A stretch of 64,000 nt of DNA from Psammoneis japonica. Its lineage: Eukaryota. Each line of letters begins with the position of its first letter. The first letter of the stretch is position 1. Below the pieces are notes generated by a model. That model saw nothing but the letters and a program-made list of their open reading frames with translations. It was not told where the DNA came from and did no database searches. Made by a program: the position numbers and the translations under genes. The stretch covers positions 124,001 through 188,000 of the forward strand of contig QPGO01000009.1 of the NCBI GenBank assembly GCA_008632985.1, read 5' to 3'. This document shows, one piece after another, positions 3,180 through 31,826 of this stretch.

Positions 3180-3205
3180 TTCGCCTCCCCAATTGCACAT
3201 TAGAG

Positions 3206-7597: not shown

Positions 7598-7976
7598 TGC
7601 ACTGTGCTCGAAGAACGAGTGTAAACGAAAGTAGAATGAAGTTCAAAAGGTGAAAATTATGAGAATTATTTCTGCGCAATCATTTTGGGTTCCTCCGAAC
7701 GGGTTCTCAACAGCCTAAACCTTTTGCACTGCTCTTACAGACAAAAGGCCTTTTGGAGAATGTGATCGTGACAACAGATTGTCCGGATGCGATTGACATT
7801 GACACACAAGATGTCAACATCATCGTACGATCGCATTTGCGATTCTCGACATCCGGTCACTTCTGTGTGATTGATCTGCACTTCGTACGAACCCACGATT
7901 GACGTGCGATTGAAACATGCTTTTATTTGACACACAGATGTGCACACACAGTACGTGCATGACAACGCACATTGCA
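7598..7976 (-). repeat. 5' LTR of Gypsy copy B (379 bp)
   Basis: Begins TGCAATGTGC, ends GCACAGTGCA (imperfect terminal inverted repeat), contains AATAAA. Confidence 0.9.
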
Positions 7977-10900
7977 CAGGCACGCCTGGGCTGGTTGTTG
8001 TGCTCATCTCCCTTTGCCTGCATGCAGTGCCAAAACTCAACCTGGACAAAGCTTTCTCTGTTTGCTTGCTTTCTCACCAGCTTTTGTGCAGAGTGTCTGC
8101 CCACCACCCACAGACTTCGCTGAGTGAGTCAAACTTCAACACTTCAGCGGCCTCTTTTGGTTTTCATTGCTGGCCAGCTGTCATTGTCATGTTTTTGTCC
8201 ACATGCTCAGCTGACCACAGCAGATCCCAGAGGTGCTCTGTGCGCCCTTTGTCTTGCTGTGGACTCAAGCGCAAGGCCAGCATCAAGTGGTTGCTTTTTG
8301 CAAAATGAAAGCCTGTTGTTTTGCATGTTGTGTGCGACACAAGCAGCAGCTCCTTGCTGTCATTGTTGGATCTGGTGCAGGATCTGGTGCAGAGACACTT
8401 CTTGATGTTGCAGTCTGCATGTCATCACACAACAAAGAAGCCACTCAACACAAGGTCTCTGCCGCCATTGAAAAAAGGGTGGAGATGAGGCAGCTTGTGA
8501 AGGGGTTGTTTTTGAAGATCCAAGAGGCAGCCACAAGCTGCGCTGCACAGCCTTTGACAATGGCAACAAATGCCAGTTTGATCTTGCTGAAAAAGAAAAG
8601 CCCAGTTGCTTGCGGTGGTTGAGCATGAAGGGAAAGAAAAGTTTTTCATTGATCATTCCAGCACAAGCCTTGCAAAGAGGCAGAAAGCAAGCAGATTGAG
8701 AACACCCAAGAGGAGCAGAGAGCACTTTTGGCTCTGGAGCCAAATCCCATGCCAAGCTCAGATGGCAAAATGACCAGGGGGTGCGCTGACGAGTTGCTTT
8801 GCATGCTCTCAAGAAAGAATTGCTGGCAGCTGTTCTGAAGCTTGAAGCAAGCTTTGCATGCTCCAAAAAAAGAGCCCTGAACATCCAGGAGTCCAGCAGC
8901 ACATGAGACAAAAAATTGGGAGCCCCCTTGTCAAAACTCTCTTTCATGCCCTGATTTGGGCCTGATCAACATCCTTTGGTGCAATGATCTTGTGTCAGCA
9001 GCAGTGCTGCAACTTTGGTTGATGTTAAAAATGTGGGCAATGTGGCAAAAACAAAGCAGTGCTTTTGTCCAGCATGAAACTTCTCTCTCTCTTTCTTTCT
9101 CCTCTCTCTCCAACCACAAAGTGGTGTGAGCACAGAGTGAAAGTGTGGGGTGTTTGTGAGCAAATGAGCACAAAGTGTGCCAGCGCTGTGCCTGTGAATC
9201 TGGCAGTGGCTCACCTGCCCATTTCTGAGCACACTGCAACCCATGCTGTGCTCTGTCCCAGCATGGCACTCAGTGTGACTTGTTCCTCAATCAGCCAAGA
9301 GCATTGGAGCTTTGCACCCACCACATCATTTGTGCTTTGTGAGAGCTGAGTTGCATTTGTCACTTGCCCAAGACAACCTGCACTTCCAAAGCCAGGCTGC
9401 AGGTCAAGGGTCATGTGTTTTGAGCCAGCATTGCTCCCAGCACACTCTGTGGGCTCGGCACTCTCTTTGAGTTTCTTCAGCCCAGCACCAAGGGCTCAGC
9501 AATCTGACTTTCTCTCACACTCAGTGTGTGGAGTTAATTGGGCATGACAAGCTTGTGTGAGCTCCATCTTTGTTGTCATTCCACCTGCAAAGCAGGGCAC
9601 TGATCTTTGCTCCTGCAGCACAAGATCTGCTAAATCTGTTGAGGGCCCAACTGCAGTCTTGCAGCTCTCCAACAAAGTCCCTCACTTGACCACACATGGC
9701 ACCACCAGTTGCTCAATTGTCAACCCCAGTGCTGGTTCAGAGTTGGCACCCAAGGTTGCTGCATGCCCCAAGATGTGTTTTTGCACCAAGACTGCACTGC
9801 TGCTGTTGCAAAACACCCCGCACTGTGGCAAAGCAACAAGGCCATTTTGGGTCATTGAGATTTTGTCTGTGTGGGCTGCAAGAGCCTCTCCAAACTCTCC
9901 CTCTTCTGGGCTTGTTGCCACTGGTGTGTTGACAGCTTCAGCTGATCATGCAGCTCACTTGACAATTTCAAATTGTCACGTTGTGTGGGAGTTTAAAAAT
10001 GCCACCCAGAGGTGCCATTGTTTGTGTGTGGGCACACAAAGAAATGGCAAGCACCCTGTGTGTCACTCTTGCAACACATCAGACAGATGATGAGAGTTGC
10101 AGCTGTGATGAGATGCGCCAAGTGCAGACCACAGATTGCTTTGCAATGATTGTTGCCAGAATGGCAGTTGCAGGAAGGAAGCTTTTGAGCACTGCTGGTC
10201 AGGTTGAGTCCTGTTTTTTGGTGCCAGACATGGAGATGTGAGCCAGTGCTTGGTTGAGCCTGTGTCCCATGCGATGTTGCTCTTCTGCAACTCATCAGGT
10301 CCAAGCTTGTTGCTTGTGGCATGGACAAGGCACACAAGCTGTGGGTTGGCAGCAGAGTTTTTTTGGGGCTTGTTGCACAAGAGTTGAAGAGAAATGCTCT
10401 GTGAGGTTGATGGGTTGATGATCCAGGCAAGTTCATCATTGCAGCTCATCAGCTCTGAGTGCCTTGTCACAGTGTTGGCAGTGCTCAAAAGCCTTTGTCA
10501 TGGAATGTCTGACCAGCAAGAGAGTGGCCACCTGCCCGCCAACTTGCAAACCACATTTTTGATGTGGGCGAAGCAAACTGTGCTGATGGTCAATTGGTTT
10601 GATGTTCCAGGTGAGTTTGCTGATGTGGCTCATCAGCTCCAACATTGTTGTGGCACAAGCAATGCCCACAGGCATTTTTTCTTTGAATGTCTGGTGGCCA
10701 GGAAGGTGTCATCATTTGATTTGCCAAAGCAGGTGAAGCCACTGTTTTCTGCAAATCAAGGAGAAAGGCGCCATTGGGCTGACTGCTTGATGATCCAGGC
10801 GACCTCAATTGCACAGTTTTGTGAACTTGAGATCTTGACAGTGTGGGCATGCTGCTGGTTGTGGCGGTGAAAACTTCTTGCTGGGGTGCAGGCCATGAAT

Positions 10901-13900
10901 CAACTGACATGCAGCTGTGGGTGACTGTCTTCAGGAGTGTTGTTTTGAGTCTCACAATGATGCCCAGATGAGCTGGTCATGCACTCAAGCTGGCCATCTG
11001 GAGCAAACAGTGGTTGCTGGTGGCTGAGAGCAAGGTCTTAGCCACCCACTGCATTGTGAGCTGGATTCATGTGTCAGCTTGTTGTGATGCCAAAGGAGCA
11101 CCCCTTGAAAGAGAAATGCGCTGACAAGCAACTTCAGACTGTTGTGTGCACCAATGGAAAGCACCCAAATTCAATGATGCAAGTTGGAGGTGGAGCAGTG
11201 CATTGTGTCACCATGTCAGCACACACCATTCCAAGGGACCAAAAAAAAGCCAGCATCATCAAAACCTGCCAAAGAAGTGGAGCTCACGGACAGAGAATGG
11301 TGACAGAAATGATGTCCCTGCAGCGTCACTCTGGTGATCTCTCTCATTTCACTTGGAGCCTCCCAGATTGTGGACACAGGATGCAAATCAGAAGTCTGAG
11401 TCATGCTGAGAAAAAAAATGACCAAGAGCATGGGCCCTCACCAAGCAGCCCAGCAGGAGAATGATGGCAAATGGGGCTCTGTGACATGTTCCAGCCATTG
11501 CAACAAGGTCACCAACATGACCCATGGAAGCAAGCAAAGAGTTTTCTGGCTTCTTTGCAGCTCACATGCTTGCTGGAGGATTGTGGCAGGTGCACATTCT
11601 CCAACTGCAAGTGCAAATGGCAAAAAAAATTGATTTTGCCACAAGGGGAGGACTGCCACAGAACTCTTTCTGCAAGGCCCTGCAACACTCCATTTTTCCA
11701 CATCCTGGCTGTGATTTGTCTGTTTTTTCTTGTCATTCTGTTGTGAATGGTGAAAGTGTGAGTTCATTCTGACTTTGCCTTTTCCTTCATGGCAGCACAG
11801 CACTGTCAAGTGGATGATCTTCAGGGAAAGAATTTGAGCCTTGTGGCACCTGGTTTCCAGCACTTCAAATTGCAGTTTTTTGTTTCAAGCAAGCAATCAA
11901 CATGTGAATTTAGATGGAGAGATTCTGAGTGTAGATTTGTGGACCTTCACCCAGAGTTCCTGGCACAATTTCAGGAGTGACGTGGTGCATGAAATTGCGC
12001 CAACCACAGCTTTTCACAAACTGCTGGTCCCAAAATCAACAATGATTCGTTCTTGAAATCCAACAAAATCTACAGAGAAAAGCACACCTCATCATGATCC
12101 AAGCTGTTCAAGTTCCACCACTGCCAGCCCTCCATTGTCACACTGTCACATTTGAGCACATCCACCATTTTGATCTCCATGGAAGACTTTGCGCCGCACA
12201 AAATCTCCATGATCAACGTGACCACAGGCATCCACTCCTCCCTTTTTCAATTGAGTTGACATGCCTGCTTGCACACAGACATCTTTTTGTTCCACACTTG
12301 GCTGTCTGAGTCAACAGAGTGACTCATTGTCCAACAGCTGTTTTGTGTGGGTGTTTTGTCTTTTTGCAACTTACGATGGCAAAGGCACCCACATCCAATG
12401 CCAGGCCACTTGTGTTTGGAAACAAGGCAAAAAAGCTGAGTGGAGCAAACAAAAGTGCAGCTGGTTGCCTTGATGCCATTTGCATTGAGTGACTCCAGTT
12501 GCAGTCTTTGTTGCCAGTGAAGCATCGCCAAGCATCAAATGCAACAGAACAAGAAAAAGAGTCAAAACTGCCTTTGTGACAATCAACAACAGGAGTGCAA
12601 ACATCTTCAATCCCACACTGGTTGCTCACTCAAGCTTTCCACAGCATTGTTTGAATTGTTGCCCAGCAATGGGAGCTGATGTCCATGAGGTTTGTGAGTT
12701 GTGGCAATGGTCCCGGAGGGCCACAACACAGCGCACACATGCAGGCTTGGGGTTTTGGTTTTTTTTTGGGGGGGGGGGGGGGGCTTGTTTTGTCTGGAGA
12801 CATGGGTTCTTGTGAGTGTGTCACACACAGCAGTGCGTGGTGCACCGTCCAGGCCCCAGTGGAGGGGTGAGTGGCAAGTGCTTCTGGCAGTGGCAAGCAG
12901 CACTTCACTGCATGCTGCAGTCTGCAGTGGCAGAGACAAGAGACAACAAGATGTGACACATGATGGTGGAAGACATGCCAGCCACAGATGAGTCATCCAG
13001 TGATGAGCCACCACTTCCACCTGCAGCTCCTCCTGCATCCAAGTGCAGTCTTCCCTGCTGGCAGGATGCTCAAGCAACTGAGCCTGGTCAGTTCTGATGG
13101 ACAAGATGAGACTCTCTCTCTCTCTCTCTTTCTTGCATGCAATCACAGGTCAGTCCAGGTGCCAAGCAGCTGAAGTGTTTTAAGTTCAATTGACCATCAA
13201 TTCTCAGTGCTTTCCAAATCTGGGCCCCCACTTTTTTCATCTGGGGGACTCCCCCTTTTGTTGAAAAATTCTCCCCCCAAAACCCCAAGCCCACATGCAT
13301 GCAACAGCGCAATCATTGACATCCTTGGCTTGGTGTGCAGTCAAGGTGCACGCAAATTGTCACAGACAAAGTTCTGTGTGCTGCGCACATTGAATTGCAG
13401 CAACAGACAAAGATGTGGTTGGACAGGAGCAGTGCAGATGCACTGTGGCCATTGATCTGCTGTGTGTCAACTCCAGATGCTGCACAAAATGAACAGCAGA
13501 AATGTCCAGCAATGTTGGTGGTGTGACCAGAGGGTTGGTCATTGTTGACACATCATTTGTTTGCACACACAGTTTGACAACAAAGTTTGAAGACATTTGC
13601 CATGCCATTTTGTTTCAGCATTGGTGGTGGGGGGGAGTGGGAGTTGTGGGGGGGTCAATCACAGTGGCACTGCTGTTGTTTGCATCTTTGCACTGAGTTT
13701 TTGCCATGAGCATTGTGAGTGGGTCCAGCTGAAACTGGCTGGCAGATGACAAAAAGTTGACAAGAACCATGATCCATGGTTGCTGGTGCAGCAGCACCTC
13801 TTTGCAAAATGCAGTGCCGGGGCAGGATGACAGCTCTTGCCATGTGTCCTCTTCACCCACAACAGATGCCGCCAGCACCTCTTTGAGTTTTTTTTCATGT

Positions 13901-14555
13901 GCTTGCACATCATGGACATGTGAGTCATTTAGAAGTGACAACAACATGCTCACAACACGAGTCAATGCATTGACTCATTTCAATTGCCAATGACAGGCAA
14001 TTGAGGTGAGCACATTTGAGCATGCACGAGCAATTTGTGTCAGAACTTTGCGGCTTGCTGGCTGTTCTCATCTGTTCCCAACCTTGCAGCATGGATTGCA
14101 AGCACAACTCTGATGCCATTGCTGTGCTGCCTTGGCGCAGAAGCCAAAAAGTGAGCTTGAGACGCACCTTCATGGTGAGTTGTGAGTGCAGGTTCATGAC
14201 ATTGCCAACAGTCATCAGCACTCATTCACTGCAGCATGTTTTCTGTCTGCCCTCCAAGAGCTGTGTCACACCCCAATGTTCCAACATGCTCCTTTGAATG
14301 GCTGGCCTCATGTGCACCCATCAAAAGAGAACAACAGTTGGAAGCCATGCTGCCCAACACTGCATCAACTGCTTTGTCAAGAGACCTGCAGCTGACGCCA
14401 TCCAACTCTGCCAACAAATGATGGCTGCCCTCATTGAGCGAAGCTCTCCTTCACATGCCCAGCCTTGTTCACTTCCAGCATTTGGCCCATCTCTTCTCCT
14501 GTTGCACAAAGCTTGCCCCCCCATGTTTCTTGTTGGCCCCGCACCACATTGAATG
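7977..14555. repeat. Degenerate TpA/CpG-depleted repeat-derived DNA, family unassigned
   Basis: Almost no TA or CG dinucleotides. (CT)n tracts at ~9080 and ~13110. 13990-14400 resembles modules at ~22.1 kb and ~52.3 kb. Confidence 0.5.
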
Positions 14556-14738
14556 AATGCTGATGTGGTGTTCGTGGCCTGTGCCACAGCACTCTTGCCC
14601 TTCTGTCATTGCCACACTTGTGTCTGCACTGCATCTCCCATGCAATTGGACGCTGTTGTCACTGTGACCCAAACACACGTCCACAGTTGTTCACCCACAC
14701 ACTGACCAAACACAGACCACTCCACTGGGATTCACTTG
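14556..14738 (-). repeat. 3' LTR of the Copia element (ends approximate)
   Basis: Direct repeat of 20692-20876 (AATGCTGATGTGGTGTT...CCACTCCACTGGGATT). Confidence 0.8.
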
Positions 14739-17700
14739 GTCCCTGCAAATTGGCAATGCTTTGCCAGCTCATCTGCTCAAAACATCCTCTCACAGAGAGG
14801 CAAAACACAAACCCAATTGGCCACCAGCCAGTCTGGCTTGGGAGGTCACAAGGCATGAACATGAGTTGCAAGCCCTGGACCTTGGCTGCAAGGGAACCAT
14901 CATTGCCAAAAGACAAATGAGCACAACTGCCAACACTTTTCACCTGTCACAAGCTCTGTCAATGGATCTGCCAAATTCGTCTCCGCATCTTCCTTTCCAA
15001 CTCTCACAATTCCAGCTGCAACTGCCTCTCTCACTGTGTGACAGTTGACTGCATTGTGCTTCTTGTGCAATGCAGATTCTGGGACACTGATGTTCTTCAC
15101 CACACCGTGGTTGTTGCAAAACACATTCAACAATCATGTCCTCACAAGTGCACATCACGACCAACTCACTGCCAAATGCAGAAGACTCAACTGCATTCTG
15201 CCACTTGCTGAACCACACAATTGGAAAATTGTTCACAAAGACAACTGCGCACTTTCTTGAGGGGCTGTGCAACCAATCCTTGGAATTTTCTGCAACTTTG
15301 CAGGCCATCTTGGTCATGAAAAACTTTTTGAGTGCTGCATCAAAAGTGCCCTCTTCACCACAGAGCAGCGCTTGCGTCATGCTGGCTCCTCTCCTTTGTT
15401 TGTGGACGTGGCCATTGATCTGTCAGCATTCTTTCTTAAACTCACAGGACAAGCAGCTGGGAATGCGAGATGCCATTGAAGTGGGCTCCTCGTCTGATGC
15501 CACACGAAGAATCATTTTGCAGGTTTTCATTGCATGGGCAGTGCCAGAGTGTGGCCTGCATGCAATGACATTTCCAGCATGATTTGCATCAACAAAAGCA
15601 TGCACAGTCGCCGGGTTTCCACACAGCTCAGGCACCTCAGGTGGCAACTCTTCTTCACAGAATGCAGTCCAATCTGCCACACTGTTGAACACAGACTCAT
15701 CAATCTCAGGACTCTTGGGATCAAATCCAACCCCACCTCTGCCCGGATGCTTTTTCACACATGCAAATGCATGGCACAAGGCTTCCATGTGACCTTTCCT
15801 TGGATTCGCCTGATGTTGAGAAAGCAAAGACACTTCAAACAAAATGACAACGTGGCCCAACTCAATCATCCATCTTGCAATTCCAACAAGCTGCAAATGC
15901 CGGGACATGGAGTCGGGGCCCAATTTGTCCGTCACACCCAACTCTGGCTTGTGCTTTGCTGGGAATGGATCCTTGCTTCACACTGTTCTTCAAGACTGCA
16001 CCATCCCTGTCCTCACTTGACAGATCTTCCACTGTCTTGATTGTGTTCTTGATGCGGTCCTCAGGTGAACTGGCCCAAATCATGCGACTGTCTTGTGTCT
16101 GAATCTTCTCTGTCATTGCTCCCAAACAAGTCTCAGGTTCTCCTTCACTCCCAGGCTTGATCTTGCAATGCTCGGCAACAGACTTGACAACTGACTTGCC
16201 TTGATGCAACATCATCAGTGCATCATCCACACACACCAATGGCATCTCACAGTGCTTGTGCCCGTCTTTGCAAACTGCTGCTCACAAGGCTCAAATGCAC
16301 ATTGGGATCCGCTCATGTCGGTTTGAAACCCACATCTCACAAAGCAGAAGAAAATGTCAATTGCCATGAAAACCCTGCACTTTTCAATCCGTGAAGTGCT
16401 CTCACTGCAACCAATGCACACCCTTTGAACTTGTTGTCACACTCAGCTCCACCTTTGAACCATGTCTTCTCTGCACACGGTGCACTCAAACAAGCACTCT
16501 CCAAGTCGATTGCAGCAACATCCACATTGTTCAAGGCTGCTGGCACAAAAGCAATTCGTGCACTGTCCCTCAAGACAATGCTTGAGTGCGTGATTGAATC
16601 CAGTGCTTTTGCAGTGTGACCTCCAGCTGCAAACCTGGCCTTGCAGGTGAAATCCATCTTGACGTGAAACACCACATGGCATTGCATCTCTTGACATCCA
16701 CACAGCTTCTGACTCTTTCCTTCATGGACTTGTTGTGGAGTTTTGCCATTGTGCTTTTCCCATGCCACCTTTGCCTCAGTCATCTCCTTGTCAATGGCTC
16801 TGGCCCAATGGTCTGTCCCTGTCCCATGATCAATGTGCAGTGCTTCATCAACACTCTTTGGCAACTTGACCCCAAACTTGTGAGTGATTCACCAGCACTT
16901 TGACTTGACCTTTGACACAATGTGGCTTCATTTCCTTGGCACATGGGGTGCCCACCAAGCAAACACTGGTTCATTGGCAATTCTGTTGGCCACTGCATGC
17001 TCTGCCACTTCAACAGGATTAGAGTCCTTGACGTCTTTCAATTTGACCCAGTCAGAGCTGCCGTCCTTCCATGCCATCAGTGACTCCCAACCTTTTGTCA
17101 TCTTCTTCTTCTTGCTTTGACCTCCTGCAGTCTCAACTGTGCCATCATCCTTCAAAATTGCTTCCCACATCATCCTGTGGTCTTGAACTTCATGCAAAAC
17201 AGAGCACTGATGACCCTCATTGTTGACCTGAGCGGGCATGTTCTCAGCTGTGACATCTGTGTGCTCGATTTTGCACTCTCTTGCATCAAACAATGGGCTC
17301 TGATGTCTCCATCCCATTGGTTTGCCATCATGACCTCTTGCTCTCATTGCAACTGCACCATGCCTTTCTCCTTCTGTTCCGACATCCACCAGGATTAGCT
17401 CCATGCCAAGGCACTGGTCCATGGCTTCCTCGTCATCATCATCAGGGCACTCTTGTCATCTGTCAGCATGTCACCATGTTCTTTGTCATCTGGCACAACA
17501 CCTCCTTCACACTGCACATTGCACAATCATTGAAACAGAAGAATGCTGGGACTGCCTTGTCTCCTTCAAGCACAAAGTTCATGTCATCCAATCATTTTTT
17601 CAGAGCTTCACTGAGCTCATTGATCCATTTTCTTTTGTCCAACTCAACACAGTCTGCCTGCACAACTTGCTCCATGGAGGTTTCAGACACCAACTTGCTG

Positions 17701-20672
17701 CTCTCAGTCACAATCCAGCGACACATGTCCAACCCGACTTCATGTGATGTGCCAAGCCATCTTCCAAGCCGCCCAGGATCTGCAGTTGCACTTGGCTTCA
17801 AATCCGGTCTATCCTGCCACCAAACCAGGTCACAGAATCCAAAATCTGGGTGCTCCCTAATCTCTGGTGTTTGTCCTGTCACTTTTTCACATCTGGCTTT
17901 CCTGTCTTGACCTCGTGCCATTCTTGACAGCAACTCAGGTTCATGTGCTAGACCAAAATCCCACAATTGCTTTGGAGCTTTCTTCTCATTCATTCGCAGC
18001 CTCCAGTGCTCAGCCAAGAAACCTGTCTCCCATTCTGCTGTGTGACTCTGGTTCTTCCTGCCTTGTTCTGAGTTCCTGAGCTGTGTGCGCATGCGTCTCA
18101 CATGTTTCACAAAATCTGCATTCTTGCCAGTGAATTCTCCTGCCTCGTCCGTCAACAAGAACTTGGGCGCTCCAACATCGTCTGTGAACTCAACTGACGA
18201 TTGTCCTGCTTCCAACTGAGCTGTCATCAGGGTGACCTTTACAAACTTTCCCTGAGTGCAATCATTGGCACAAGTGTTGCCAAGAATGGACTTGACTTTT
18301 GAAATGAGGGTGTCAGCAAACCATGTCCCTTTTAGTCTCTTCCAGTGCAAATCCAGGCAATCCACATGAACACGCCTTGACAATGGCTGCATTGCTGTCC
18401 TGACACCTCGCTGAGTTGTGACATTGAGAGTGTCCTTTGCCGCATCTGGGCCAACATTCCACTTCCATGCTGGCTCCTCTGCTGTGATCTTTGAGTGCCG
18501 ATCCTTTGCACAATGTTCTGAGACTTTCTGTTCCAACCTGTCAACGTCCTCCCTGCAGGCACACTCAATCTTTGCAGATGCAATCATGCGGTCACAAAGT
18601 GTCAGAAGGTGATGAGTTGGGGAAATGCTTGCCACAGCCTCCTCAACTTCTCCCCACCATTGGACCGCTGCAGACTTGTCTTGCCCTGCTCTTGACTCTG
18701 ACATCTCTGACTTTCACATGTGGGGTGCCAATGATTGGATGGCCTGCATCTCCTGTTGCTCTCTGGTCTCATTCAGAAAACCCCCATGTCAACTTCTGAT
18801 GGATTCCAAGTGTCACCTGCAAGTGAGACAACTGGCAAATTCTGTTCCTCCCATTCTGTGGGCACTCAAGACTCAAAAGACACAACTGTCCCTGTGGCAT
18901 GAAAAGGCACAAAGGCTTCTTCCGTTGAAACACCAAAGCTGTCTTGGGGATTGCAAGGGTTGTCATTTGCCAAGACATTGCATGCTGTTCCATTTGCTGT
19001 CTGAACCATGACATCTGATCACCAACCAACAAATGTTTGGCTGCAGCATCAGGATCTGTCAAAACAGCACAACATTGAGCAACTGGAATTTGTTTGACCA
19101 GATCACATGATTCAAGGAATGGACTCACTTCACACATTTCATCAGTGGTCTCCATCAACTTCCAGTTCACTCCTGCACAACACATGTCCCCCACAAGCAA
19201 AGCCCCTGCCTGGGCCTCCATCATGGGACATTTCCGACATCTTGCACTTTGAACAATGCTGGGCCTCTAATTGGGATGCACCATGCAAACAAGAAACTTC
19301 AGCAGAGAAAAGAGGGCACACACACCAGGAAAGTTGCCAGGACGCTGCTGGCTGATCACAGGAATGCAAGCTTGCAGCCAAACATTGTTGATCTTAACCC
19401 CTCTCTGGAGAATCTCAACTTTTTGCCCTTCTGTCTTGCCCTGGTCCTCATCCTTTGCCAAGGTTGCAAATGCACTGGTGAGTTTTGCTGTGTGCTGTTC
19501 AAACAACAGGCGATGCTTGTTTTTACAGTGCAATGACCTGATGTTTGCCAATGCCAACTGAGTGCACTTGCCAAGCTCTCCCTGTCCATTGCAATGGTCT
19601 GTCCATGCCCAAAAAAGGCATCTCTCCCATTCTTTGTGCCGCTGTGGGCTTCAATCCAAGTCATTGCTTCCTTGTTTGCCATGTGAGCTTTCAACAAATG
19701 ACACACAGTGTGATTGTCCTGGTCAAATGCCACCCCATTCAAGCTCAATTGATGCACATGCTCCTCAACTGTGTCAACGAATGTGGCCGCTGCTGCTGCT
19801 GGCCTTGCCATGCAACACAATGGCTCTTTTAATGCCCCAACGTTCTGTGAGACAAGAGGTTCAAAAATGCATCCTCCATCACATCAAAATCATCCGACTT
19901 GAATGCCGGCAAGGAGCTGACCAACACTTTGGATTCAACCATGTCTTTTTCAATGTGCTTCTTCTGGCAAGGCAGCATCAACTGGTGCTGCCTGATTGAA
20001 AAGTGCTGAATCCAATGCAAGGCTGTGCTTCTGATGATCACAAAGCCACCAGCCCAAAGCTTGCAAGTTCTTAATTTGGACAGTGCCAAGTGTTGCTCTC
20101 CCATCCTGGTTGGCATGACTGCCAACCCTGTTTGCCATGTCTTCCATGTCCCAGTCACCTTCCATTGCTGCAATGTTTTCCAGTGTCACAAGTCCATCAC
20201 AACACACCAAGCAAGCTCTTGCATTGATGTTGGCAATGCCACATGTCTGCAGAACATCATCAACATCCACTGCATGGACAGGAGACTGAACGCTCTGCGA
20301 GCACCATGGTGACAGGTCCACACAGTCAACTGGCAATGGGAGGCCACCCCATGCCAATTTGTCTGAGTGGTGAGCACACACTCTGGGCATGCCACCGCCC
20401 CCACACTGCTCTGTTTGACGCCTCTAGCACACATTGAAAACCAATTGATTCACAAGTGTGACACCATTTCAACCACAGCAATTCTCATGGTTGGTTGGCA
20501 TTTGTTGCAAAATCTGATGTTGCCCGATGCACACACGCAAAAACCAGCACTGCTTCTGTGGCTGACACCCATGTGGTTCTGCACAGCAGCAACAAATGGC
20601 CACATGTGTTGTTTTGTTTCACACCCGTGTGATGACAATTCCATTGTGCTCAGATGCTCAACAACAGACCAT

Positions 20673-20684
20673 GGCTCTGACAAA
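20673..20684 (-). promoter_or_regulatory. Probable degenerate initiator-Met tRNA primer-binding site
   Basis: Minus strand TGTCAGAGCC next to the 5' LTR matches the core of the canonical TGGTATCAGAGCC with one TA->TG change. Confidence 0.5.
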
Positions 20685-20691
20685 GCAAACA

Positions 20692-20876
20692 AATGCTGAT
20701 GTGGTGTTGCGGCCTGTGCTGCAACACTCTTGCCCTTCTGTTGTTGCCACACTTGTGTCTGCACTGCAATTCCCATGCAATTAGATGTTGTCATCATTGT
20801 GACCCAAATGTGTGTCCACAGTCATTCACCCACACACTGACCAAATGCAGGCCACTCCACTGGGATTTGCTTGACA
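20692..20876 (-). repeat. 5' LTR of the Copia element (ends approximate)
   Basis: Direct repeat of 14556-14738; begins TGTCAAG on the minus strand. Confidence 0.8.
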
Positions 20877-20879
20877 TGT

Positions 20880-22520
20880 CCAACACCTGCAGCACCTCCT
20901 TGGCTGAGTTGGTGGGGTGGCTGTCAACCCCCAGTGCAAGCTGCCAGTGTGGGTCCTTCAAGACACACCAACCCTCATTTTAGAGGGTGCCTTCCATGAG
21001 CAGCACTGCCAACAACTTGCTCCTCTCTTTCTTCTGAGTGTCCTCAGCATCCGTGCTGAACCCATCTTCTTTCTTGGCAATTTCTTCTGGGACAACTCTG
21101 CTGCAGGACCCTCCCACCATCTCAGCAGCACTTGCAAGCTAACTGCAATGATCTTGAAGTGCCTCTCTTTCATCTTGATGAGCGAGCATCAGCCAGCTGG
21201 TGCTTCCAAGCCTCAACAGCCTGAGTGTGCAAGTAGATTCTCTTGGCTGCATTGACCAAGATCAGCTTGTTGCATTGACCAAGATCAACTTGAAAATTTC
21301 CAACAGCACCACCATGTCCCACTCTGTTGTGGCCCTTGCAAACTCCATCACTCCTTTGACCTTGTGATGGATGGCCTTTGTTCACTGTCCTGCAGTTAAA
21401 AAAGAAACACCCTTGCCTTCTGCATCTCACAGATTGTGCCCCATCTCATGTGGTGACCACCTCATTTCCCCCCAAAAAGCCCCATCCTTCTCTGATGCTG
21501 TTGCCTCTGATGGATGCTTCAGCTCATCCAGTTTGTTCTCCTGCCTCAGAGATGCCAGCAGCTGTGTCTCCAGCCCAGGTGCTCTTCTGACATGCTTGCT
21601 TGTTCTCCTTGCAGTCTCCATGTGCCAGTCGGCCTGTCAACCTGACTTGGCAATGGCGCCACATGCCTGCTCCTTCAAATCTTTCATGCTTCTGTGCTCT
21701 GCTGCATCCTTGCCCATGTCAATGCTTCTGCTGGTCCAACACAACATCGCCACACCCTCTGTTGGCAGACCCTTGCAGCTTCCTCACAGCAAGGTCCTCC
21801 AGAGGCTGTTTCTTTGCCTCCAGTCACTCCTTCAACCAGAGCAACAATTCTGCAATGACTCTTGTCAGCTCAGCAAACTCAAATGCCATGATTGCTCACA
21901 CCAACCAAGTCTTGGATTCTTCTTGATTTCCCAGCCAGCCTTTTTCACTTCTGTGTTGGAACTTCATGGCCTTCCCACTGATCTGCGCCAGTCTTGCTGA
22001 TTCCCAAACTCACCACGTGGACTGCAAACACAGCTCCAATGCTGTCGCCATGTTGCCCTGATGCAGAAGCTGAAAAATGAGTCCAAGCACAGACCCACAT
22101 TCATGGCAAGCTGCAAATGTGGATTTGCAATGTTGTCAACAGCTGCCAGTGTTCTTCCACTGTGACATTGTTCATCTGTCCTCCAAAAACTGTGATGTGC
22201 TCCAATGTTCCCACAATTGAGCATGTGTGAAGCACAGCAGCTGGACCAAATGCTGTCATGAGGGCTGTCAACCAGCAGCTCTGGCAGCTGGAGCAGCCAA
22301 GTGTGAAAGCTGAGCCGCCAGCACCAGCAGATTGGCTCAAACTAATGATGAAACAGGCTGTGTTTTGTGCTGCTCAGCAAGGGAAGAACAGTGGCTCTCC
22401 ACTGCTCTCCATGTCTTTGATGCTGAGAGAAAAGTGACTGGCAATTCAAGTGAGCACATTTGAGCTCATTTGAGCATGTTGAGTGCATGTGAGCACATGC
22501 GAGCACACATGAGCACATTT
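20880..22520 (-). mobile_element. Degraded gag-like repeat fragment; related copies at ~43.6-44.2, ~46.6-47.0 and ~51.1-53.2 kb
   Basis: Shared peptides LRQENKL(D/E)EL.HPS.ATA (21.5 and 51.8 kb) and shared DNA GCTGAACCCATCTTCTTT.TTGGCAATTTCTTCTGG (21055 and 52841). Ends in ~10-bp GAGCACAT repeats. Confidence 0.6.
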
Positions 22521-25500
22521 TTTTAAAGCACAGCTGGCGGTGATTGAAGCACAGCCAGTGGCGACATTGGCGAATTTTGTGATTACATCAGCAGAAATGG
22601 CGACATGAGACAAGTGAGTTTTTTCATTTCAGCAAAGGTTTGCAAAACTCATTGCTGTGTGCACACCTGTGGGGGTGGCATGAGTGCCACAGCATCTGTC
22701 CTGGCATGTTTTGCACATGACTGCAGCACTTTCCAGTGGTTTTTGCTGTCAGCACTTTGTGCTGGTGTTGCCAGCAAGCACTGCAGTGTTGTCAGGAAAA
22801 TTGAGCCAGCCTGCTCCAACAAGATTGACACCCCTGAACTGCAAGAGTGCTCCCTTCATTCATGAGTCATGAGCACAAGCACAAATGCCATGTGGCTTGT
22901 CTGAGAGGAAAATTGAGCCCCGGTTTTCTCCCTTGTTCTTTTTGTCACTGAGTCAGAGACAGCACAGCACCCAACAAATGACAAGAGCAGCATCAAAGGG
23001 AATGGGGGGTGATGATTTGATGTCCATTGCAACAAAAGCCACAACATTTTTTAATGACATGCAACGACAACATGGGAAACAAACTTGTTGCTGCTTCTTT
23101 GCACTCAAAATGAATGGTGCATGTTCAGTGCATTGCTGGACTCATCACCCTTGCCAACCAAATTGACAAGTTGCACACATTGTGAGCAGTGCTTTTTTGT
23201 GTTGTTTGTTGCAGCACACATGATCAGGTGCCAAACCCACTGGGGCCTAAATTTGGAAATCCTCTTGCTGGCTGACAAACAGACCACATTCTGGGAAAAG
23301 GTGTGTGAGCATGAGCACACAAATTTGTCAGTGACAAATTAGCCCAATTTGTCAATTGGCCCAGTTTGTCACAACAAATCAAACCTGTTTGTGGTGACAA
23401 ATGGGTGTGACTTGCAAATGAACAAATGTCTTTTCCTCCCCCAACAAATGCCCAAGTTTGAAAATCAAGAACACGCCAACTTCACAAGTTTGACACCCAT
23501 GAAGCACTTTGTTCAATGTTTGCAACCAGCTGACTGAGAATTGATTGGTTGGCTGGCATTTTCAAATGCCTGATTTGTGATGCAGCACTGCAACTCATTT
23601 TCAATCCACCACCCAAAATGCAGTTTTGCAGCTGGGAATCGCTGTGCACTCTGACGTCAAACAATGCAGCTGCGCCATTTGTTTTTGTCCACTGAACCAC
23701 CATCAACTCCAGTTCGTGTGTTTCCACACAGCTTGCTGTGTGGTCTCCCTCATTGTCCAATGTGTCAAGTCCCCCCCCCCCCCCACTTGTTTTCTGCAGC
23801 TTTCCAGATTCACCCTGTGCAAATGCTCCCATCAGCCAAGTTGATGTCCACAACCCAGTCCTCGAAGAACTTGTTTGCCCTTGGCAACCACCCCCTGCTC
23901 TTCCTTGGCATCTTGCATCACTTCCCACTGCCTGCACTTTCCTCTGTGCTGGCCAGAGTGGCCTGCTGTGAAGTGCTTGAGTCATCTCATGCACTGTCTT
24001 TGTTTACAATGAGCTCCTTGTTGGGCAGCTCCATGTGGCTGTTGAGCTTGTTTGTGACTTCTGTCAAAGTGGACAGCCAACCCTTTGTTTGCCACTCTTC
24101 TCAAACTTTCTTGATGTTGTCATTTTACTTCTTTTGGGACTTTTCCCTTGCCTTCTTGAACTCTTCCACCACTTCTTGCACAGCTTCTTGTTCTGAGGGT
24201 CTTTCTCCAACAGAGCAAAAAAGTGCTTGAGAAATCTTCACCATTGTGCTCTGCTGCAGCCAGGGAGGGCATGTTTTGTTTTCACACAAGCCCTCTCTTC
24301 CCGCAGGGCTTCCCTCATCATCAAGCTCTGCACCACAATCCATGTTGTTGCTCTTGTGCTCTGCATGCTGCACATCAAAGTTGTCACATCAAAGTCATTC
24401 TTCAGCAGCATGTGGGCAAATGTTCCAACACACAACACACACATCCTCTTGTTTTAAGCAAGGCTCTTCTTCCAACATGCTTCTCCCATGACAGGACACA
24501 ACAGGCAGCTTCAGAGTGCAGCGTGCAGTGTTGGATTTATCAACCATTCTTGGAATTGCTCTGGCAATGACAGCACACAACTGTTGTTGTCACAGCATGT
24601 GCACAGCACTGCATCAATGCAAGTGGCAAATGGCACAACATTGATGTCAGTGTTGAATGTTGACAAATGAAAAGAATTTGTGACACTTGCAGTGAAATCT
24701 GTCCTGCTGTGCCTGCAAGCATTGGATCTCTTAGCCACCAGCCACTCCTGGTGCAACCTGTCTTGTTTTGTTTTCATCCACAGGGGTTGCAGGCATGTCT
24801 TCTGCTGCAGCTCTAGCAGCTCTGCAAGCATGCCATTCACCAAGGTCAGCACACAATTCTGGGTGAAGTCTTGGCACAGTCATGTCAAGTGCAAATGTGG
24901 TGCTCAGAAGTGCTTTTTCTTTGACATGGTGTCTCACCTTGATGATGTCTCTGCCAGCCTGTTTGTCATTGACCATCCACTCACTTAGTCTCACTTGCCT
25001 GTGAGCTGCAGTTTCCATGTTCCCTTTTTTTGTGGCGCCTTTTCCCACCATTTGGGTCAGCGATGCAGGTTCTCCTGCATGGTTTTGCAAGGTGAGCCCC
25101 CTTTTTTGTGCTTCTTGTGATCTGAAAAACAGTGGGTTGATGTGCTGCTCCAACTGCGCATGAGCCAAGTTGTGCACAAAAACAACATTTGAAAAATTTT
25201 CACGTGTCTCTGACTTGTGACCAAGCTTGCACCACCAAAAACACAGATTCACCCAAATGTTGATGTTTTGCAAGACTTGCAAGACTTGTGTCAGTGTTGC
25301 AATGTTGTTGTTTTTGTGCTGTCAATGTTTTTCATTGCAGCAAGTGAGTCACAGCGGTGGTTTTTGGCAAAAATGTTGAAGATTTGTGTGCACTGGGTGT
25401 TTGGGTGTTAACACAAAATGTGTTTTTGCTGAACGCTCTGGCCAGAGTGGGCACTCTGCCTGCAAAGGCTTCGTCGCACCCATGCTGCAGTGCTGTCATG

Positions 25501-25562
25501 CAATCAGTGTGTTGAGTCTGCTCAGAAATTCATGATGCATGTCCCATGAGAACTTGAGTGCC

Positions 25563-25656
25563 GCTGAAAAACATTGTTTGACTGTCCATGCTCTGGACAC
25601 CAGTGTCAAGCTGAAAAACATTGTTCAACTGTCCATGCTCTGGACACCAGTGTCAA
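25563..25656. repeat. 47-bp tandem duplication
   Basis: GCTGAAAAACATTGTT(TG/CA)ACTGTCCATGCTCTGGACACCAGTGTCAA twice; the copies differ only by a TG/CA swap. Confidence 0.85.
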
Positions 25657-26699
25657 CCAACTGCAAAGTTTTTTGCAACAATCAGATTGCAGACAGTTGA
25701 TTCTTTAACTGCTCATGCTCTAGACACCCATGAAAGCCCATTGGCACAAGCATTTCTTGTCAAAACACTTGACACATGCAATTCACATGATTTGTGTTTG
25801 TGTTGGTTGCTCAATGTCTTCAATGTCAAATTTTGATGAGCCAAATTTGAGAAAGCTTGCCCAAGTTTCAAACACAGTTGAGTTGTTGAGGACTGCAAAG
25901 GTGCTTGACAGCAATGCATGAGATCCTTTTGCAGGCCTCTTTGCACTTCTTGTTTGTCCTTCTGCAAACCAGATGGCTTTTAAATCAGCACCCAGCACCC
26001 ACTGAATGAGTCCATTTCAAACAAGTCAGCACACTTTGCTGCAACAAATCCCCATCCATTCATGTCAACAGCAGTTTGCCCCTGCATTTTGCTCTTGACA
26101 TCTAAAATGCCACCACCATTGCCATCACAGGCCCAATGCAAGCTGGCATGTTGATGGCACTCTGCACAAGTTGGGCATGCTGTCCCAAGCCACAGCACTG
26201 CTCCTGAGCTGCCAGCAAGCAGAAGAGCCCCAGTCATCACCCCCCAGCCAGCTTGGCACGGCCACTCCCAGCACCTCCTTGGGTGATGCCATTGCTGCAT
26301 CTGGTCCTTGCAAAATGGCAGATGTGCCAAACAAGATTGCTGGTGGTGATTTTGAGCTCAGGGCTCCTCAGATGTCTGGCAAGCATTGGTGATGATGATG
26401 GCAGCATCTCGGATGATGAAGAAGACAAAGCTTGTCTTTTTGAAATGTTCCTTGGCAATGGCACCTCCTGAATGTTGGTGTCCAATGCAGGTCAATTGAT
26501 GGGAGCAGAGCCATCTGTTCTCAGTGAGAGCATTGTTGGGGCGCAGCTCCCCCTTTGCAGAGAAATCCTCTCTTGAGCTGACTGCACTCTGTGACAACTC
26601 CGGCACCACTCAAGGATTTTGTGACTTGCTGCTCACCCTTCTGCAATGTCTTAGAAGAAGTTTGACATTTCTGAGTCTGTTTGGCATTGGAAGCTGGTG

Positions 26700-27110
26700 G
26701 AAAACCTGCAAAAGAAGGTGTGCATGCTGAAGCCTGACATGCACTTGACAGGTGGGTGCCGAGTCACTCGTTTCTGCACACAGGACATGTTGCAAGACCT
26801 GCTTGCCCACCCACTTTTTGACAATGAGCACAGCCTCAATGTGAGCCAGTTGATTCAGGAACAACATCTGGAGGGCTGCAACATCTGCAAAATTGTGCCC
26901 AACAAGCAGCACTTTGACACACACACAACAATCTCCCCAAAGACTTTGACCAAGAAAAAGACTTGCTCCTTGTCATTGGCTTGCATGCAGACCAGAGAGG
27001 AGCTGATGCCTGTCAATGCTGTCCACTTGAGCCTTGGCTCTTTGGCGTCCTTGTTGTGAAGAGACAAGCTTGCAAACACCCATGTCATTCTCTGGGTTCT
27101 GTCTTGGTTT
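26700..27110 (+). pseudogene. Possible Plavaka-like transposase remnant
   Basis: DMLQDLLAHPLF...IGLHADQRGADACQCCPLEPWLF resembles the LYxDxTxxD....LEPxxF block as I recall it, once Tyr->His/Cys is reverted. From memory only. Confidence 0.4.
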
Positions 27111-29918
27111 CATGCCAAGTCTGGACAAAAGAGGTTCTTCTGGCTGCTGTGCTGGTGATTTGGGCAACACAATTGATGAGGGTCATGGCACAACTTGTCT
27201 GCCAATGTGCGGGCACACCACAACATGCTGTTTTTTTTTTGCTGGAGGATTTGATGCAGCTGCAAAAGCGCCCCTGCAACATGAGGATGATGCAGGCTCT
27301 CCTTGCTCAGAGTCCAATTTGTGGCAACCAGATTTCACAGGACTGCCTGCGTGGTCAGAGAGCAACCAACAAAGGTGGTGCTGGTCATGTCAACTGACTG
27401 TGCATGTTTTCATTCACAAATGCCTCTGACAGATTCCTCCAATGATTGCACAATGGACTGTCTTGCACTCCATTGCCAACATTTTTTAGCTGCACCACAC
27501 AGCTCTTGTTGCTGGCACACTCCACTCCAAGAACCTCCCAGGCTCATTTGCCAAACTTTTTGATTTGCACCTTGCAATTGCAGGGTGGTGGAAGATCAAA
27601 ATGTTCAGCATGCATTTTGTCATGGCAAAGCTGTGCACAATGAAAGGCATCAGCAATCATGGCCTTTGTTTGTGCCAGCAACTCTTCTTCCTTGTTGTTG
27701 GTTTCAAATGCATTGGGCCCACACAAGAGGGGTGGCTCTGAGCTGCTGTTGGCTCCAACAATCCAGCTCTGTCCACAACAACCAAGATCCACTCAACAAC
27801 TCACTTCCAGCTCTCCAGCAACTTGGTTGTCATGCTTCTCATTTCAGGCACCATGCTCCAAAATCAAATGGCCAGCCAATCCAAAATGTGGAGCTCACAA
27901 GCCTTGAAAAATGTTTTTTTAAGAGTGTGCGTTTTGACTGGGCGCAATCTTTGTTGCTCATGGTGGGACCTTGCTCAACTTGTGCAAATGCTGCTCAGGA
28001 TTGGGGGCCCATTTCATGGACTTGAAGGAATGTGTGGGGAGACAGAAAGGTTGGCAAGCAGGCAGAAGTTCAACAGAAAGTGACAAAAAATGAGCTCACG
28101 GTCATTGGCATCCTTGACGGGGTTGCCATCTTTGTCCACACCATCAAGAGAACATGAAAAGTCCAGCAACAAGCTTTGGTGCAGCAGAGCCCACATTTGT
28201 GTCCCAAAGATTGGCCAACTGTGTTGCTGATGGCAATCACTTGCTCCAAAAAACATCAGCTCAGTGCAAAAGTCACATGAGGTGCACACACTCTGAGGAA
28301 AACACAAGTTTTACAGCTGCAGCCATGTTGTCTGGTGATGTGGCTGTTGTCTGTTTGTTTTTCTGAAAGCTTTTGGGTGCCAGCAATGTCATGGCAAATC
28401 TGTGCTGTGACTGTGCTTGTGGCACAGCAGCTGTCACATGCGTTGTTGCCAGTTTGCCATGCACTTGGTGATTGCTCCTCATTGAAGCAAAACAAAAGAT
28501 CTTTTTGCCTCCCCAAAATGACTGTGCTGGCAAAGAACAGTCATCACAAAGCCAGGCACAGCAGACAAAAATGACAGCACAGCAGCTCTCTCATTGTTGG
28601 ATGCTTTCTGGGTTTGTGCATCTGCCGCTGCAAGAGCAAGCTCAAAGCTTGGTTTGCAGCTCACTTGTGTGTTTTGTTTGACAGGTGGGTGAGCCCCGCT
28701 GGCACTCCATGAGATTTTTTGGTGATGGGTCCACCAGACTTGTGCAGCACATGTGTTGGGTGACATGGCTCCAAGCGCCAAGTGGTTTCTGAAGCCCATC
28801 ACATGATGACAACTTTTTCTGGTCAAAGCTTGAAACAGAAACTCCAAAAATTCATTTTGTTGCATTGAATGTTCCACACACACTTTGGATTTGTTGCCAG
28901 TTTAGTGAGTGCATTTGGCAGTGCACTGCACTCTCTTTGTTTCTTTCTGTCCAACATTCTGCACTCTATTTGAGGTGCTTGTTTGGGTGCTTTGTGTGCA
29001 GTCTTTGACTGTGGGGCAATCAACTCAGGAGGTGGTTGCCACCTGGGTTTCAGCTCCAACAGCTGGAGTTGTCCACCAAGTGCAGCAAGTCTGACCCATC
29101 TGAGTTTTCATCAAGTTCTGGCTCCCTTGCACAATGGTTTGATTCTGCCATTGTTGGAGGGGCCTGAAGGATGCAATTGTTGAGATTTGGCATTGCAGGG
29201 GCATGGCCAGATTTGGTGAGTGCAGTGCCTTTTGAGCGCCAGTCTTCACCAGGTTCTGTGCATTTTGCCGCACGCATTTTGCAGCAGTCTTCACACAAGT
29301 GCAGCTGTTGGTTTTCACTTTTCCTTTGGTCACGACCAGCACTCCTGCTCATGATTGTCATCCTGTCTGGTGGCAAGAATTTGAAAAGTGCTGCCAGCTC
29401 AAGAGTGGCAGGGTCAAGCAAGTTGAGCAAAGTTGTTGTTCACAACAGCAGCAACATCAATCACAATGACACGGCACAGGAATCTCTTCCCAACACAATG
29501 AAGAAATGATGTGAGATGCAGGGGGCAAGTGCAACCGGAAGAAGTGGATTTGTGATGGTGACCAGCACACACAAAATGGAGCTCAAAATGCTGGCAAATC
29601 AAGTTCTCATTGCATTGAAAATGCTTGCCATGACAATGTGAGACACTGGCAACCTCATTGAAACAATCAAGCAGAGATCCGAGCCACAAACAGGGATGAG
29701 CGGCAATGAAACAATGAAGTGATGATGAAATGGCCAACGACACGTAGTCGACAAGCGCTTTACTCAGGATAGAGATTTACTGCGTCACTCTCCACAACAG
29801 AGCAGGTGTAAGACCATCCACTCTAGATGCCATTAGGCGGCCGAGATGCCAACGCACTAGATAGGAACCTAGATTCTGCAGCGACAAACTCCTGCTTGCC
29901 ACTGATCGACACGCTTAG

Positions 29919-31826
29919 TTACTTTTCCGCCCACACAAACGCTTGGAAGACACGAGGATCGAAGTCGCTCTTCAGATCATCCCAGTCGTAAGCATTAATA
30001 TACGATTTGTTCTCCGGACTCAACTTGGAACACGCAAACCACCGTAACGTTTGCTTAAGACCCTCCTCGTCAACGCATCGTATTCTTGCGGCGTGAGGCG
30101 TGTAATTTGAAGCATACCTGGGCTCATCGAAGATAGCGAAGGACGAGGAAGGTGACAAGTCTTGCGGTACGGCTGGCATTCTTCTACTCGATGATATGGA
30201 GTGCTCCCTCGATCTCATTTCGTCAGGCCCTTGTCGTTCTTCTGAAAGAAAGCCGGAATCGCTGATGCCTTCATCAGAGAAAGACCCGTTTTTTAATACT
30301 TCCTCCATTTGAAATGGATTTTTACTCAGCGTGTCTTCATATGGCAAGCTGTCAATAAAGTCAAACCAGGGTGTAGGCTGCTTCGTTTCCTTCCCATTGG
30401 TGACAACGCTTCTTTCTCCACGGTGCAGCCTATGAATCGCCACAACGTGCTCATGATAAAAAAGCGTGGCAGCCATGCGCTTGCCTACGAAACGACCATC
30501 AGGCCGTACCAACGCATCGACAAAGGCATCAATGTGCTCTGAGCTTAGAATATTTCCACCTACAACCGTCACGAACTGATCTTGAGAAAGTAGTTTTCTC
30601 TGGATGAAAAAGTCGTGCACATCGGAGGGAATGATGAGTGCATCCTTGGTCAAACCTAACAATTCCCGCACTTCGGATAGAATGGTCGGGGTTTCTTCGT
30701 CAATCACGTGACGAATTGCCTCGTCTGGCAATCCGGTATCCACAAAAGTGCCAACATCGTGGTTGTGAAAATGATGGATGCAAAGCAGTGGAGCAATTAC
30801 GGTGCAACCATTGATGCTGCCCGCTAGGCGTCCCTGGTATGTGTCAATCCTCGAGATACGAATTCTCCGCGCGTCACAGAGTCGACTGAATTTCACGAAT
30901 GCCTCCATGCACAATGATTGTACATCCAATCCGGAAATAAGGTCCTGGTTTTGAGGCAGTGACGCCGGAGGAGTGGGAAGCACTGCTGCTGGTTTAGATG
31001 ATGATGAAAGTTGCAGTCCACTCAAAAATAAGGCCTGTTCCAATTCCAGTTCTGAGTTCGTTCGTGATAAGGGAAGCTGAACAGGTAAATCTATGTCATC
31101 GAGTTGTTTTCGATCAGTTGGGCAAATAGCCGCAGTGATAGTATCAGAGTACTCCAATAAACTACCACACAAGCTGAAAGTGCTTGAGACATACTCGTCG
31201 TAATCTACTGAATAGCGAAGGTCCTTTTCGACAGCTCGTCGCTCACGTTCATATTGTTGTAAGGAGATTGCGTTGTCGCGTTGCTCCTCTGCTAATCGCG
31301 ATAGCTTCGCAAGCCTTTTCTTCTCTCGTTCTTCTAGCTCGGATTCAATTTGCTCCTTGAATGCTGTTTGCTCCTGTTTCAAAATGTCTTCTAGGACATG
31401 TGTGACACGCACTGCATCATGACTGCTCTTGAAACGCTCTCCCTCGTGCCTTTTCGAGTAAAAGTACCCATGCTGAGGTATTTCCAGCAGGGCCGTCTCG
31501 ACGAATTGCATACCAATCGCATAGGCGACTCGGTATCTGTTCTGTAAATAGAGAGATTCGAACGCATTCAAAATATGTTCGTTCAGCTCATAGTGTTTTG
31601 ATATGGATGTTCCTTTTGATAGCAGGGACGACTGAGTTCTCTGAAATAGAACAGGTTCAGATCGTTGACGTGTGACGGCAGATGACGGCGGGTGCGACAT
31701 TGAAGCTATATTTCTCCGACGAGGGTCGACCGTCTTCGTATTTCCACTACTTGATTCAACTTTTCTTATTTCGTAAGAATCGCCCATAGTAGGGAGGGAT
31801 TCTGGCCCGGTACCTCGTTTCCACAT
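29919..31826 (-). CDS. Intact protein: USP8-dimer/MIT-like N-terminal region, UIM-like helix, papain-like Cys-His-Asp C-terminal domain (putative)
   Basis: Uninterrupted ORF of more than 620 codons with normal Tyr, TA and CG content. Candidate ATGs at 31826 or 31787. Motifs: AYAIGMQF..L.EIPQHGYF, ELELEQALFLS, YQG..SINGCTVI, HEHVV, WFDFIDSL. Confidence 0.8.
   Translation of the reverse strand: MWKRGTGPESLPTMGDSYEIRKVESSSGNTKTVDPRRRNIASMSHPPSSAVTRQRSEPVLFQRTQSSLLSKGTSISKHYELNEHILNAFESLYLQNRYRVAYAIGMQFVETALLEIPQHGYFYSKRHEGERFKSSHDAVRVTHVLEDILKQEQTAFKEQIESELEEREKKRLAKLSRLAEEQRDNAISLQQYERERRAVEKDLRYSVDYDEYVSSTFSLCGSLLEYSDTITAAICPTDRKQLDDIDLPVQLPLSRTNSELELEQALFLSGLQLSSSSKPAAVLPTPPASLPQNQDLISGLDVQSLCMEAFVKFSRLCDARRIRISRIDTYQGRLAGSINGCTVIAPLLCIHHFHNHDVGTFVDTGLPDEAIRHVIDEETPTILSEVRELLGLTKDALIIPSDVHDFFIQRKLLSQDQFVTVVGGNILSSEHIDAFVDALVRPDGRFVGKRMAATLFYHEHVVAIHRLHRGERSVVTNGKETKQPTPWFDFIDSLPYEDTLSKNPFQMEEVLKNGSFSDEGISDSGFLSEERQGPDEMRSREHSISSSRRMPAVPQDLSPSSSFAIFDEPRYASNYTPHAARIRCVDEEGLKQTLRWFACSKLSPENKSYINAYDWDDLKSDFDPRVFQAFVWAEK

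Follow-up and report, generated by a model that had tools for sequence, protein, structure and literature searches.

Introduction

The closest known system to the one described here is that of the alga Bigelowiella natans, in which integrated DNA of nucleocytoplasmic large DNA viruses and virophages is reported to undergo de novo hypermutation of TpA to TpG or CpA, at a rate raised about 1000-fold and in some lines only (Mettrop et al., bioRxiv 10.64898/2026.01.13.699255). Among the literature matches listed, targeted TpA hypermutation is found so far in this one preprint on one alga, and none of these matches reports it in diatoms, most subscription papers lying beyond the reach of the search. 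The A>G DNA editors in use have been engineered from an RNA enzyme, and the evidence for natural ones is thin. Counting positions from the edited A, bacterial TadA is reported to require TACG, and a C>T change at +1 abolished editing in hokB (PMC12255301). TadA-8e acting on RNA has a UA motif and no clear preference downstream of it (PMC12296453), an engineered TadA variant favours YAC (PMC13109818), fungal Tad2/3 has a preference for A or G at +1 (PMC11156358), and ADAR prefers a 5′ U and favours UAG (PMC10661471).

Here we analyze a window of 64,000 nucleotides from the diatom Psammoneis japonica (contig QPGO01000009.1 of assembly GCA_008632985.1, positions 124,001 to 188,000 of the forward strand), in which decayed long terminal repeat (LTR) retrotransposons have lost nearly all of their TpA steps. 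An earlier note on this DNA had proposed that the TpA sites surviving between 9000 and 29000 are mostly YTAR (Y, pyrimidine; R, purine), and that an enzyme with a TadA-like preference, deaminating the A of 5′-TAY, may be responsible. By comparing element copies with each other and with their homologs, we show what must have been TpA>TpG/CpA transitions on both strands, arising after the copies had been duplicated, within domains whose sharp edges spare genes and rDNA.

Results

Regional loss of TpA

Three saturated blocks were delimited, at 7977..29744, 32217..39389, and 41933..55107. Overall, TpA stands at 0.02–0.04 of expectation in these blocks, CpG at 0.09–0.21, and CpA and TpG near 1.9. 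Block 1 consists of decayed repeats, with observed/expected (o/e) ratios of 0.04 for TpA and 0.15 for CpG (computed on 7977–29700, the next TA being at 29745); the TpA o/e is 0.025 in block 2 (on 33000–39200) and 0.02 in block 3 (on 42000–54800). Block 1 includes the pol remnant of a dead Copia-type LTR retrotransposon (14900..19300, minus strand), which is spread over several frames and whose relatives include a reverse transcriptase (RT) of Nitzschia inconspicua; its four long open reading frame (ORF) pieces have no Tyr at all. Three features served as unaltered references: a host ORF between blocks 1 and 2 (29919..31916, minus strand; TpA 0.58, CpG 1.10), an ORF between blocks 2 and 3 (39738..41645, minus strand; TpA 0.49, CpG 0.96), and the 18S-5.8S-28S rDNA unit (57864..63828, plus strand), which is not depleted (TpA 0.91 on 57000–64000). 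As in B. natans, the loss is therefore regional, with 0.02–0.04 in the blocks against 0.49–0.91 in the ORFs and rDNA, and it falls on Gypsy and Copia remnants.

The first 8 kb of the window hold two Gypsy LTR element copies in inverted orientation and about 92% identical. Copy A (1..3062, plus strand) comprises a partial pol and an LTR at 2684–3055 and is partly mutated (TpA o/e 0.25, CpG o/e 0.89), and copy B (3063..7976, minus strand) comprises an LTR at 7605–7976, gag-pol, and a truncated second LTR (TpA o/e 0.18, CpG o/e 0.89). With TpA at 0.18–0.25 and CpG at 0.89, these copies at 1–8 kb are an earlier stage of the process. They abut end to end over 1–7976, and the second LTR of copy B is only 119 bp long. 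Judged by contig depth (about 8000 vs 69, a rough figure), the family may number some 100 copies. A frame of 808 amino acids in copy B (3977–6403, minus strand) has 31 Cys vs 4 Tyr, and its RT motif reads CIDD where the homologs have YIDD; the element is dead.

Base change and strand

Between the two Gypsy copies there are 248 transitions and 7 transversions, and the differences include 45 of TA vs TG or CA and 39 of CG vs CA or TG. In 66 columns of their alignment, one copy has CA and the other TG, and each copy was therefore mutated separately, on either strand. The direction of change was polarized on the codons of the dead Gypsy and Copia elements with 159 homologous proteins, using columns with at least 8 homolog rows, at least 60% agreement, and an in-frame neighborhood. 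Conserved codons that began with A now begin with G in 62/72 cases after T and in 23/352 after A, C, or G; the A:T>G:C transitions are thus confined to TpA, as they are in the B. natans process. Both outcomes occur within a single copy: copy A has 41 TG and 30 CA, and copy B has 42 TG and 43 CA. Their order along each copy is random, strand-coordinated runs being absent (31 vs 35 expected and 41 vs 41.5 expected), and no coding-strand bias was found at RTAY (31 TG vs 22 CA, p 0.27).

Surviving TpA sites

Between 9000 and 29000, the 54 remaining TA steps comprise 41 YTAR (TTAA 16, TTAG 14, CTAA 7, CTAG 4), 11 YTAY, 2 RTAR, and 0 RTAY. The YTAR majority seen by eye is thus borne out, and all seven hexamers cited for it are present, five at the base given and two one base upstream; the “few exceptions” do exist but number 13 of 54. 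Pooling all three blocks gives 61 YTAR among 80 survivors, again with no RTAY (block 3 contributes YTAR in 13/17). By comparison, YTAR makes up 137/579 of the TpA steps in the genes and rDNA of the window (24%; Fisher p 2.5e-14 vs the survivors), 23.7% under a local flank null (p 9e-16), and 2457/15008 in 73 unmutated related elements (16%; p 7e-22). The last set, 67 Copia-like metagenome loci and 6 Gypsy-like loci from a viral collection, was retrieved via exact conserved peptide patterns. None of these loci is TpA-depleted (whole-locus o/e 0.51–0.94), but as such patterns often miss mutated copies the set is a baseline and does not argue that the process is lacking from other diatoms. The YTAR bias of the survivors is real and far beyond chance. 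Survival is 15–32% for YTAR tetramers, 1–5% for mixed ones, and 0 for RTAY, ranging from 32% (TTAA) to 0 (ATAT, GTAC, ATAC/GTAT); the uniform depletion of NTAN tetramers that would have spoken against a context preference is not seen.

Among the survivors without a TT or AA flank, 28/38 are YTAR, against 1650/8035 in the local background, and the excess is not only a homopolymer effect. Nor is it an assembly error where this was checked, over 9000–20000: 14 of the 23 TAs there lie inside contigs of run X1, possibly from the same sample as the window, and the listed differences of these contigs fall elsewhere. The mixed survivors are skewed on the plus strand in 9000–29000 (YTAY 11 vs RTAR 2, p 0.02), a skew that is not significant over all blocks (13 vs 6, p 0.17).

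Influence of the flanking bases

YTAR lacks TAY on both strands, as the earlier note pointed out. RTA, however, is equally missing from both strands of YTAR, and the survivors therefore cannot separate a 3′-pyrimidine rule from a −2-purine rule. The polarized codons make the distinction. Where the A lies at a codon junction, it changed to G on the coding strand in 49/117 cases before Y vs 13/94 before R (p 8e-6), and the effect of the 3′ base holds in each of the three elements (p<0.04), with 14/36 vs 2/26 in Gypsy A, 17/39 vs 5/28 in Gypsy B, and 18/42 vs 6/40 in Copia. Resolved by 3′ base, the counts are 25/60 for TAT, 24/57 for TAC, 10/62 for TAA, and 3/32 for TAG. The −2 base was without effect on these changes (30/110 vs 32/101), and the RTA model was rejected. 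The proposed 5′-TAY preference is thus supported. Tyr codons after Y together with Ile codons before R gave 27 outcomes of the TAY type vs 8 of the RTA type (p 0.002), or 18:7 when Gypsy A was left out. In decay models, the rate before Y exceeded that before R by a factor of 3.1 when the window served as baseline and of 4.1–5.3 when the relatives did, in agreement with the 27:8 ratio of directions. Taken together, we show that A before C or T is estimated to mutate about 3–5 times faster than A before A or G. YTAR, being slow on both strands, therefore survives last.

The preference is not absolute, as had been anticipated, since about 80% of the YTAR sites are also gone. The AATAAA/AATGAA pair offered as an example of this exists, but in the LTR pair 2684–3055/7605–7976 and not within 9000–29000. 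The +3 base has no effect. A purine at +2 is over-represented among the survivors (106/160, p 3e-6), and a pyrimidine there appears to add about 1.6–2-fold, a part of the rule that is only partly shown.

Comparison with TadA targets

The edited A follows a 5′ T, as it does in TadA targets. In the remainder of the motif, the resemblance to TadA that had been suggested breaks down. TAT is no less affected than TAC (fitted rates 3.5 vs 2.9 and 1.35 vs 0.82), and a model with only C at +1 fits far worse than the Y model. In Gypsy B, 12 TACG survive of 30.6 expected, as against 1 TACC of 31.8 and 4 TACT of 36.2, a survival that resembles that of YTAR-type sites, and TACG is over-represented among the survivors of this copy (12/24, p 0.003). 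It is also kept in both Gypsy copies in 8/22 columns vs 6/78 (p 0.002). The looser test, TACG kept in at least one copy, is not significant (12/22 vs 32/78, p 0.33), and the junctions point the opposite way, TACG being edited in 6/9 vs 18/48 (p 0.15). Judged from these divided tests, TACG is not a favoured target, and it is likely to be relatively spared. The link to TadA is thus weak, and in detail the targets do not match. None of TadA, TadA-8e, the YAC variant, fungal Tad2/3, and ADAR matches the order TAT = TAC > TAR.

Loss of TpA and loss of CpG

TpA loss precedes CpG loss and reaches beyond the zone of CpG loss, because the young Gypsy copies keep their CpG and because the left edge of block 2 (32217–33000), with its abrupt boundary at 32215, has 1 TA and 34 CG. 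The other edge zones have 0 TA and 10 CG (29000–29744) and 4 TA and 35 CG (54500–55450). Two of the five TAs surviving in the edge zones are TACG on one strand. Methylation of transposons by DNMT5 has been documented in diatoms (PMC9998398), and decay of 5-methylcytosine is therefore the likely cause of the CpG loss. Methylated CpG in the blocks would decay separately and more slowly. Three loci of the baseline set (L050, L051, and L053) have lost CpG (o/e 0.21–0.34) but kept TpA (about 0.6); CpG decay therefore occurs elsewhere without erasure of TpA. One Copia homolog (P0149) is low in Tyr (1.7%) and raised in Cys and His, and is perhaps partly mutated.

Other features of the window

The nearest Atlas cluster of the ORF at 29919–31916 (0.91) is mostly from Bacillariophyta and has a USP8_dimer domain in 41% of its members, which is a lead only; the ORF itself has no Pfam match and no sign of a deaminase. 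The ORF at 39738–41645, also without a Pfam match, has a Lys/Ser-rich C-terminus made of repeats of about 123–126 bp. Within the rDNA, the second internal transcribed spacer (window 60140–60200) carries a (CAGTA)n tandem repeat that is unusually TpA-rich and unaltered. Upstream of the rDNA, a duplication of about 520 bp (55740–56770) has accumulated 14 transitions and 15 transversions with normal TpA, and is a duplicate escaping the process.

Discussion

The combination of regional depletion, polarized codons, and flank preference leads us to favour, tentatively and at slightly less than even chances, a host adenine DNA deaminase that would be brought to silenced transposon chromatin and change A:T to G:C at TpA. 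A zinc-dependent enzyme recruited to heterochromatin would deaminate A to hypoxanthine, and replication would then fix the change as G. The target of the enzyme would be T-A-Y-(Y), unlike the TACG of bacterial TadA and the UAR of fungal Tad2/3, and its purpose would be the disabling of mobile DNA. In B. natans, the same base change has been seen to arise de novo (bioRxiv 10.64898/2026.01.13.699255), and stramenopiles possess deaminase-Tudor fusions of their own (PMC3239186). A wider proposal, which we regard as possible but doubtful, is that of a natural genomic adenine deaminase whose specificity has nothing in common with that of TadA. It would be directed to the chromatin of silenced transposons, read T-A-Y-Y, and be impeded by an adjoining CpG that may be methylated. 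Such an enzyme would be a natural A>G DNA editor and a counterpart, of reverse polarity, to the repeat-induced point mutation (RIP) of ascomycetes, and might extend across the SAR supergroup.

Several observations weigh against a deaminase of this kind or against the flank rule on which it is built. The letters of the DNA cannot by themselves tell a damaged A from a damaged partner T. Strand-coordinated clusters, which processive deaminases of single-stranded DNA often produce, are not seen here. A Pfam scan of 41 of the 132 ORFs of the window detected no deaminase family, only retroelement domains and weak matches. The ancestral states were inferred from homologs that are roughly 35–57% identical, ancestral sites are shared between the two Gypsy copies, and the Tyr/Ile test comes to 8:2 (p 0.11) when restricted to Copia. 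The direction data contain no +2 effect (28/67 vs 21/50). Finally, the fit of a gain-loss equilibrium model is almost as good as that of the decay models and puts the rate ratio near 19, although the lower ratios are favoured because of the 27:8 ratio of directions.

Among the alternatives, an ordinary TadA or ADAT2-ADAT3 tRNA deaminase acting on DNA with a relaxed motif is, in our view, improbable. The strict 5′ T and the A>G polarity fit ADAT2/3, the B. natans preprint proposes ADAT2 as the candidate enzyme and cites DNA editing by amphioxus ADAT2 (10.64898/2026.01.13.699255), an engineered TadA variant favours YAC (PMC13109818), and the edited TACG junctions lean the same way. On the other side stand the equal editing of TAT and TAC, the survival of TACG as against TACC, and the preference of fungal Tad2/3 for purines at +1 (PMC11156358). 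We give the same low credence to the idea that the thymine is the damaged base, the T of 5′-RTA being modified, for example by oxidation, and mispairing with G so that T>C follows. Such a lesion leaves formally the same footprint as A>G in TAY, and all our counts fit it. Oxidized thymines can pair with G, but we know of no T-directed mutator of a near-pure transition type. An ultraviolet TA photoproduct was rejected, being neither transition-specific nor region-specific.

Somewhat further down we place an error-prone, Pol eta-like polymerase that resynthesizes methylated or heterochromatic DNA and inserts G opposite template T. The scattered, non-processive changes agree with it, and Pol eta mutates WA (W, A or T), with TA a hotspot on both strands (PMC7884765). 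However, AA should then be mutated as well as TA, and it is hardly touched (AA/AG 17/824 vs GA/GG 7/672, p 0.15) while most TA is gone; the rarity of transversions between the Gypsy copies is also unfavourable. It is very unlikely that the loss was uniform and that the YTAR survivors are new TAs, selected sites, or assembly errors, an explanation that is already largely refuted. A TT or AA flank is present in 42/80 survivors vs 1229/9264 local sites, and some of these survivors may stem from slippage or new mutation. Nevertheless, the direction data reveal the 3′ effect without using survivors at all, TA is retained in one or both Gypsy copies more often in YTAR columns than in others (25/35 vs 44/100), selection would preserve Tyr codons (TAY), which is the opposite of what is observed, and the 14 sites found in X1 contigs match. 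Hardly credible, finally, is A-to-I editing of the retroelement RNA before reverse transcription. ADAR (PMC10661471) and fungal Tad2/3 (PMC11156358) do favour a 5′ U, but editing of RNA fails on strand symmetry, both outcomes occurring inside one copy, and it would not affect whole blocks of 13–22 kb of mixed repeats. Moreover, the UAG favoured by ADAR (PMC10661471) is among the slowest contexts here.

From a practical perspective, the dating and annotation of transposons are distorted in such genomes because Tyr codons become Cys or His. With TAT and TAC at about the same level, TAA and TAG well below both, and TACG not favoured, the flank rule provides a quantitative yardstick for any candidate enzyme.

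How does the diatom process compare with known systems? Fungal Tad2-Tad3 (PMC11156358) and ADAR (PMC10661471) share with it the 5′ U preference and the A>I chemistry, but they act on RNA and favour a purine or G at +1, the opposite of the rule found here, where TAA and TAG are changed in 10/62 and 3/32 junctions vs about 42% for TAY and both strands are altered. Bacterial TadA, which acts on tRNA-Arg2 and mRNA, likewise converts A to G (I) after a 5′ T/U and accepts C at +1; it differs in recognizing an RNA stem-loop in which TACG forms part of YTACGAA (PMC12255301), whereas the diatom process acts on DNA with no −2 effect. RIP resembles it in that dinucleotide-specific transitions on both strands disable transposons. 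However, RIP proceeds by C>T at CpA and creates TpA, whereas the diatom process removes TpA, leaving it depleted with CpA and TpG o/e at about 1.9. Homology sensing of repeats is a trait of RIP. The B. natans process is the nearest of all, with regional TpA>TpG/CpA change on foreign or mobile DNA and clusters that are poor in TpA and rich in CpA and TpG. The main text of that preprint gives no flank rule and does not touch on diatoms; such a rule might be found in its Fig. 2B or Table S2, and ours is directly comparable with the B. natans list of 231 de novo mutations. The diatom process is near saturation, with about 96% of the expected TpA gone, acts on LTR retrotransposons, and overlaps with CpG decay. 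As B. natans belongs to Rhizaria and the diatom to a different supergroup, this saturated case extends TpA hypermutation to a second supergroup.

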